Positions 52,865 to 52,880 of a stretch of 64,000 bases of DNA are shown one piece after another (within the stretch, counting starts at the first letter, position 1; every line of letters begins with the position of its first letter). Position numbers and translations under genes: made by a program. The DNA comes from Escherichia coli (GTDB lineage: Bacteria > Pseudomonadota > Gammaproteobacteria > Enterobacterales > Enterobacteriaceae): assembly GCF_003334785.1 (NCBI RefSeq), contig NZ_QOWV01000003.1; one strand, given 5' to 3'. Below the pieces are notes generated by a model. The model ran no database searches. It worked only from the letters and a program-made list of their open reading frames with translations, and was not told where the DNA came from.

Positions 52865-52880
52865 TGTGAAGTTGATCACA
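52865..52880. promoter_or_regulatory. CRP site in the proP promoter region
   Basis: TGTGAAGTTGATCACA, a perfect match to TGTGA-N6-TCACA, about 210 bp upstream of the proP start. Confidence 0.75.

Follow-up and report, generated by a model that had tools for sequence, protein, structure and literature searches.

The window analysed here, a stretch of 64,000 bases of Escherichia coli DNA, carries the genes crfC, rdcB (also named yjcZ), proP and pmrR in that order, followed by pmrB on the opposite strand, as given in the RefSeq annotation of the identical MG1655 record. Positions 52700-53200 match E. coli K-12 MG1655 with 100% identity, and 5414 of 5426 complete E. coli genomes contain this region. 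The spacer that separates rdcB from proP is 263 bp long and contains no RefSeq-annotated feature. It holds a CRP-cAMP binding site, the core of which begins 40 nt past the rdcB/yjcZ stop codon and the centre of which lies 216.5 nt upstream of the proP ATG. Two mapped promoters, P1 and P2, share the spacer with this site, together with a probable Fis site and a predicted RNA hairpin (Table 1).

Table 1. Genes and regulatory features at the proP locus, in coordinates of the window.
Feature	Position	Strand	Basis and remarks
crfC	49722-51950		RefSeq annotation of the identical record
rdcB (yjcZ), upstream neighbour of proP	51947-52825	+	ORF list, RefSeq annotation
CRP-cAMP binding site, core TGTGA-AGTTGA-TCACA	52865-52880		Exact match, weight matrix, RegulonDB and SELEX listing, conservation
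P1 -35 hexamer TTGATC, 4/6 to TTGACA	52872-52877	+	Sequence and P1 start; putative role, assigned from position
P1 extended -10, TGG + TAGGGT (hexamer 52895-52900)	52892-52900	+	Spans -15 to -7 relative to the P1 start
P1 start (sigma-70 promoter, induced osmotically)	52907	+	182 nt before the ATG; RegulonDB -34.5 row agrees
Imperfect RNA hairpin, about 65 nt, in the P1-only leader	52925-52989	+	Minimum-energy (MFE) fold, alignment
Probable Fis site I of P2, GTACATTCCTTAACC	52946-52960		Centre at about -41 of P2; putative location; G and C of the Fis motif present
P2 -10 region, GCTACGCTT	52980-52988	+	Spans -14 to -6 relative to the P2 start
P2 start (RpoS-dependent promoter, co-activated by Fis and CRP)	52994	+	95 nt before the ATG; RegulonDB activator row implies the same start
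proP, glycine betaine/L-proline transporter ProP, 500 aa	53089-54591	+	ORF list, RefSeq annotation

The CRP site upstream of proP

On the + strand, positions 52865-52880 read TGTGAAGTTGATCACA, a 16-base palindrome that lies at exactly the coordinates where the original prediction had placed a CRP site. Perfect arms that complement each other, TGTGA and TCACA, enclose the 6-bp spacer AGTTGA. The full 22-bp site is ATGTGTGAAGTTGATCACAAAT, which extends from 52862 to 52883 and is centred at 52872.5. This is the single occurrence of a perfect TGTGA-N6-TCACA in the 64,000-base window, and dinucleotide-preserving shuffles of the window yield a mean of 0.02 perfect cores, with at least one core in 2 of 100 shuffles. 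Allowing one mismatch in the motif adds one more site in the window, which is the chance level.

The strength of the site was assessed with a 22-bp weight matrix, symmetrised and derived from 60 CRP sites of RegulonDB, that of proP being left out. These sites were taken from the RegulonDB table in Shimada et al. 2011 (Table S4, part 3) and realigned by iterative best-window selection, giving the consensus AAATGTGATCTAGATCACATTT. On this matrix ATGTGTGAAGTTGATCACAAAT scores 19.6 bits, about 6 bits more than the runner-up in the window (13.5 bits), and the best scores of 30 shuffled windows have a mean of 13.4 bits and a maximum of 17.25. Among the training sites, which have a median of 13.7 and a maximum of 22.0 bits, only 3 of the 60 score as high as the proP site. 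The weight-matrix scan that had been proposed as a check on the palindrome thereby bears it out, with a score above all 30 shuffle maxima and above 57 of the 60 known sites. The further description of the site as a perfect consensus is correct for the ten core bases TGTGA/TCACA, all of which agree with the matrix consensus, and does not extend to the full 22 bp, where 15 of 22 bases agree and the flanks and spacer differ. The proP CRP site is real and strong, far beyond what chance would produce.

That the palindrome arose by chance, or serves another regulator of the CRP/FNR family such as FNR, has a negligible probability. An FNR-like half-site, TTGAT, is present at 52872-52876, but the partner half of a TTGAT-N4-ATCAA site would be AATTT, a 2/5 match, and an FNR site was rejected since the second half-site is missing. 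A chance origin is contradicted by the expectation of 0.02 perfect cores per window, and also by the conservation of the site and its selection in genomic SELEX, both of which are described below.

The remaining CRP-like matches of the window are of a different order. The next-best ones lie in coding sequences, at 8323-8344 in acs (13.5 bits) and at 36075-36096 in rpiB (12.0 bits); as their scores are comparable to the shuffle maxima, a function is improbable. Between melR and adiA, at 63228-63249, is a match resembling a CRP half-site, TTATGTGATTATTTTAAATTAT; adiA, on the minus strand, starts at 63108, about 120-140 nt downstream of it. Its score of 12.6 bits is below the mean of the shuffled-window maxima, and this match may be due to chance.

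The DNA at 52862-52883 has been catalogued before. RegulonDB, as reproduced in Table S4 of Shimada et al. 2011 (PMC3105977), contains two proP rows: a repressor site at -34.5 with the sequence ATGTGTGAAGTTGATCACAAAT, and an activator site at -122.5 given as ...CATGTGTGAAGTTGATCACAAA.... The activator row is the same DNA with the 22-mer drawn 1 bp further to the left, which accounts for the difference between -122.5 and the value of -121.5 computed here. The curated site and ours are identical DNA and one and the same object, differing in nothing more than this 1-bp bookkeeping offset. The genomic SELEX table of the same study places a box TGTGAAGTTGATCACA in the yjcZ>/>proP spacer at 4.32831 Mb, and proP is among the known CRP targets that were recovered by genomic SELEX with purified CRP (PMC3105977). 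In the literature searched, TGTGAAGTTGATCACA is absent from the main texts of the papers and present in the supplement of Shimada et al. 2011. The ChIP-exo supplement of Latif 2018 includes a proP row with the coordinate 4330027.

The prediction of a CRP site upstream of proP, tied to the known regulation of the gene, is matched by the same DNA in the two RegulonDB rows and in the SELEX table. This is the already known, curated proP CRP site, and for E. coli it offers nothing new. We take the ChIP-exo coordinate, 4330027, to be in the older MG1655 numbering, in which it looks like the 3' end of proP rather than a peak. The RegulonDB entry for the proP CRP site is reportedly attributed to Xu & Johnson 1997, Landis et al. 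1999 and McLeod et al. 2000.

Two promoters served by one operator

The proP start sites have been mapped to -182 (P1) and -95 (P2) relative to the ATG (PMC3808355), which corresponds to a G and an A, respectively, in the window. By arithmetic on these published starts, the CRP centre falls at P1 -34.5 and P2 -121.5, and the site serves as the positional anchor for the proP promoters that it had been proposed to be.

At P1, TTGATC sits inside the CRP site, across its spacer and right arm. It is followed after 17 bp by TAGGGT, with TGn before it, and after another 6 bp by the start at 52907. With a mapped start and a hexamer spacing within the 16-18 bp of sigma-70 promoters P1 fits this class, its hexamers being weak (4/6 and 3/6). 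At P2, the -10 region GCTACGCTT is a full match to KCTAYRCTT, a sigma-S type motif known from the literature on sigma-S promoters. A generic sigma-70 scan reported neither P1 nor P2, because the hexamers are weak (the P1 -10 matches at only 3/6).

The probable Fis site I, GTACATTCCTTAACC, carries, relative to 52953, the G at -7 and the C at +7 that are needed for a Fis motif. The same G(-7)/C(+7) arrangement recurs at 52906-52920, around -81 of P2, which may be a further Fis site. Both positions, -41 and -81 of P2, are reportedly those of Xu & Johnson 1995/1997.

Other signals in the spacer were set aside. A minus-strand sigma-70 consensus match at 52972-52943 was disregarded, as one such match was found against 0.2 expected and nothing else supports it, and a terminator-like match at 53027-53039 in the P2 leader is weak and at chance level. 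We also note a GATC Dam methylation site at 52874-52877, within both the CRP site and the P1 -35 hexamer, which is invariant in all aligned Enterobacteriaceae.

The secondary literature describes P1 as sigma-70 dependent, induced by osmotic upshift and after subculture, and repressed by CRP-cAMP in an osmosensitive manner. In the same sources P2 is RpoS dependent and induced on entry into stationary phase, being co-activated synergistically by Fis and CRP-cAMP, which bind independently and contact two alpha-subunit C-terminal domains. The catabolite and growth-phase control of proP to which the original prediction referred is borne out by these accounts; as a description it understates the documented roles of the site, among them the repression of the osmotic sigma-70 promoter P1 by CRP-cAMP.

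We consider it close to certain that 52862-52883 is the experimentally characterised CRP-cAMP operator of proP, on which one dimer serves two promoters, with the binding and the direction of regulation taken from the literature. One CRP dimer on the 22-bp site centred at 52872.5 would act on both P1 and P2. Bound at -34.5 of P1, CRP would cover the -35 hexamer TTGATC and compete with RNA polymerase (sigma region 4), and P1 would be repressed; such steric occlusion of the -35 is suggested by the position of the CRP centre. Repression of P1 would be relieved after osmotic upshift or at low cAMP. At P2, CRP at -121.5 and Fis at about -41 would synergistically activate transcription at stationary-phase entry, each contacting an alpha-CTD, as the literature describes.

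The P1 arrangement resembles that of several CRP repressor sites in RegulonDB, namely those of galETKM (-36.5), pncB (-37.5), ptsHI-crr (-35.5) and gdhA (-32.5), which like that of proP are centred between -30 and -40, over the -35, so that CRP bound there is in competition with RNA polymerase. Compared with these, the proP site is unusually strong, with its perfect core and 19.6 bits, and its one dimer acts in addition on a further promoter, 87 bp downstream.

The P2 arrangement can be likened to malE with MalT and to class I/III-type promoters, where CRP and a second factor act independently. It differs in that CRP, at -121.5, is further upstream than in classical class I promoters, in having a nucleoid protein, Fis at about -41, as the partner, and in the use of sigma-S by the polymerase. 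Classical class I CRP positions run from -61.5 to -92.5 (-61.5, -71.5, -82.5 and -92.5), with CRP acting alone through one alpha-CTD. With CRP at -121.5 and Fis required at the promoter-proximal site, P2 lies outside this class and fits the description of a co-activated promoter better than that of a class I promoter.

Conservation and geometry in the Enterobacteriaceae

In 5382 of 5426 complete E. coli genomes the whole 22-bp site is exact, as part of an identical stretch of 28 bases or more, and the common E. coli polymorphisms sampled lie just upstream of the CRP core. One strain, E. coli 14EC007 (NZ_CP024131.1; our locus L084), has a divergent rdcB-proP spacer of 87.7% identity that resembles that of E. 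albertii. In this strain the annotation treats rdcB as a truncated pseudogene, and the CRP site has TCGCA as its right arm.

A protein-anchored scan with one genome per species gave 80 proP loci. In all Enterobacteriaceae examined, the best matrix match within 450 nt upstream of proP is the orthologous site, which lies 200-330 nt before the ATG and scores 15-21.6 bits, with the exception of RIT691 (11.5 bits). The genera covered are Escherichia, Citrobacter, Enterobacter, Lelliottia, Leclercia, Kosakonia, Kluyvera, Pluralibacter, Phytobacter, Pseudescherichia, Superficieibacter, Pseudocitrobacter and Cedecea. CRP matches upstream of proP are weaker and variable in the Erwiniaceae, and in Pseudomonas the matrix scan found no CRP site in the 450 nt upstream of proP.

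Two side observations emerged from this set. Enterobacter, Lelliottia, Leclercia, Kosakonia and a related MAG (loci L009-L013, L016 and L017) have a second strong CRP-like box of 14-18 bits, for example TTTAGTTATCTCGATCACATAT, about 410-420 nt upstream of the proP ATG, or about 368 nt in Kosakonia (L016). The matrix scan found nothing comparable at that position in E. coli, and the second box presumably belongs to a different upstream neighbour. Separately, the ProP homologues of many Pseudomonas species (L039-L081) are 80-84% identical in amino acid sequence to that of E. coli along the full length, an identity unusually high for such a distance, which could reflect strong constraint or lateral transfer.

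In the alignment of the window with 22 other Enterobacteriaceae, GTGAAGTTGATCACA is almost invariant, including the spacer, which holds little information for CRP. The invariance of this low-information spacer, AGTTGA, fits a double constraint of CRP binding and P1 -35 function, and the conservation of the spacer and right arm could stem partly from the -35 rather than from CRP. On a rival reading, the conserved block would be essentially just the P1 promoter, the -35 and its surroundings, with the palindrome incidental and CRP inactive here. What speaks for such a reading is that the -35 overlaps AGTTGA and the right arm, which are nearly invariant, more so than CRP recognition needs. It is nevertheless extremely unlikely, as the left arm, (T/C)GTGA, at -42 to -38 of P1, is outside the -35 hexamer and yet kept in 17 of the 22 other Enterobacteriaceae, purified CRP selects this spacer region in genomic SELEX, RegulonDB lists the site, and crp-dependent regulation is reported in the literature. 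Of the other promoter elements, the P2 -10 sequence GCTAC[GT]CTT is invariant in 20 of the 22, the two outliers reading ACTACACTT.

The distances between the CRP site and its two promoters follow separate patterns. The P1 -10 element CTG[GT]TAGGGT is conserved, and the CRP centre is 22.5 nt from the P1 -10 hexamer in every genome that could be scored. The distance to P2, calculated by assuming in all species a start 12 nt after the T of TACGCT, drifts: it is -118.5 to -123.5 in 14 genomes, the window included, -109.5 in one (Superficieibacter, 12 bp shorter), and -151.5 to -165.5 in 8 genomes. Even among close relatives it shifts by 1-3 bp, and no helical phase is kept across genera.

Extra DNA between P1 and P2 is seen in Kluyvera, Pluralibacter, RIT691, Pseudocitrobacter, Cedecea and Enterobacter sp. 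R1 (loci L018, L020, L021, L022, L023, L008, L028 and L026), about 20-70 nt past the CRP site. In these genomes the CRP site is 30-44 bp further from P2 than it is in E. coli. The extra DNA mostly aligns as an insertion directly after the P1 -10, with a second insertion nearer to P2 in Pseudocitrobacter; that of Kluyvera is palindromic, CCCTCAA...TTGAGGG.

These patterns bear on how the two roles of the operator are weighted. It has to be considered that the site is mainly a distal activator of P2, in keeping with the catabolite and growth-phase control named in the original prediction, and that P1 repression is a side effect, as RegulonDB has an activator interaction at about -122 and co-activation with Fis is documented. 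The P1 geometry, however, is invariant at -34.5, and the P2 distance drifts with no phasing kept; given this conservation pattern, an operator devoted mainly to P2 appears less likely than one with a dual role, and we regard it as very unlikely. Within the dual role, the invariant CRP-P1 spacing and the drifting CRP-P2 spacing suggest that P1 is the constrained partner and that P2 co-activation is perhaps lineage-specific. On this basis we tentatively propose, at somewhat less than even confidence, that it is the repression of P1 for which the site is evolutionarily constrained, and that the -121.5 geometry at P2 is a feature of the Escherichia/Citrobacter/Enterobacter group. The combination of an invariant P1 and a variable P2 geometry is the sole mildly new point that the comparison suggests for the CRP site itself.

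A hairpin in the P1 leader and the wider picture

The hairpin in the P1-only leader spans +19 to +83 of P1 and, read as DNA, -69 to -5 of P2, so that it contains the P2 promoter. Of 19 Enterobacteriaceae leaders, which differ in their apical sequences, 18 have this fold as their minimum-energy structure. In an alignment for which each sequence was folded separately and the register set by hand, 89% of cells are in standard pairs, as against 28-39% when the partners are slid by 1-3 columns. Two-sided (compensatory) change is found at 7 pairs of the hairpin, a number reached in none of 500 shuffles, and 5 of the 6 apical pairs covary. The many G-U pairs argue for structure in the sense-strand RNA and not for a DNA palindrome. 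From a plain MAFFT alignment, RNAalifold retrieved no more than the invariant outer stems, the variable apex being out of register, and an Rfam search of 52600-53300 returned nothing credible. According to Gordon et al. 2017, Lim & Lee 2015 described RNase III cleavage of the P1-derived proP mRNA. The RNase III stem-loop of Lim & Lee may correspond to the hairpin at 52925-52989.

The proP operator is mainly a positive control, in that the coordinates and the gene of a well-studied regulatory site were correctly identified from sequence alone. What the present analysis adds is comparative: the contrast between an invariant P1 and a variable P2 geometry, and a covarying hairpin in the P1-only leader. 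The operator is a textbook case of one dimer with opposite outcomes, an osmotic-shock promoter being repressed and a stationary-phase promoter co-activated. If P1 is indeed the constrained partner, the co-activation of P2 by CRP may have been lost or rewired in the genera that carry extra DNA between the promoters, where the inserted DNA also alters the P1 leader at its start, ahead of the conserved hairpin.
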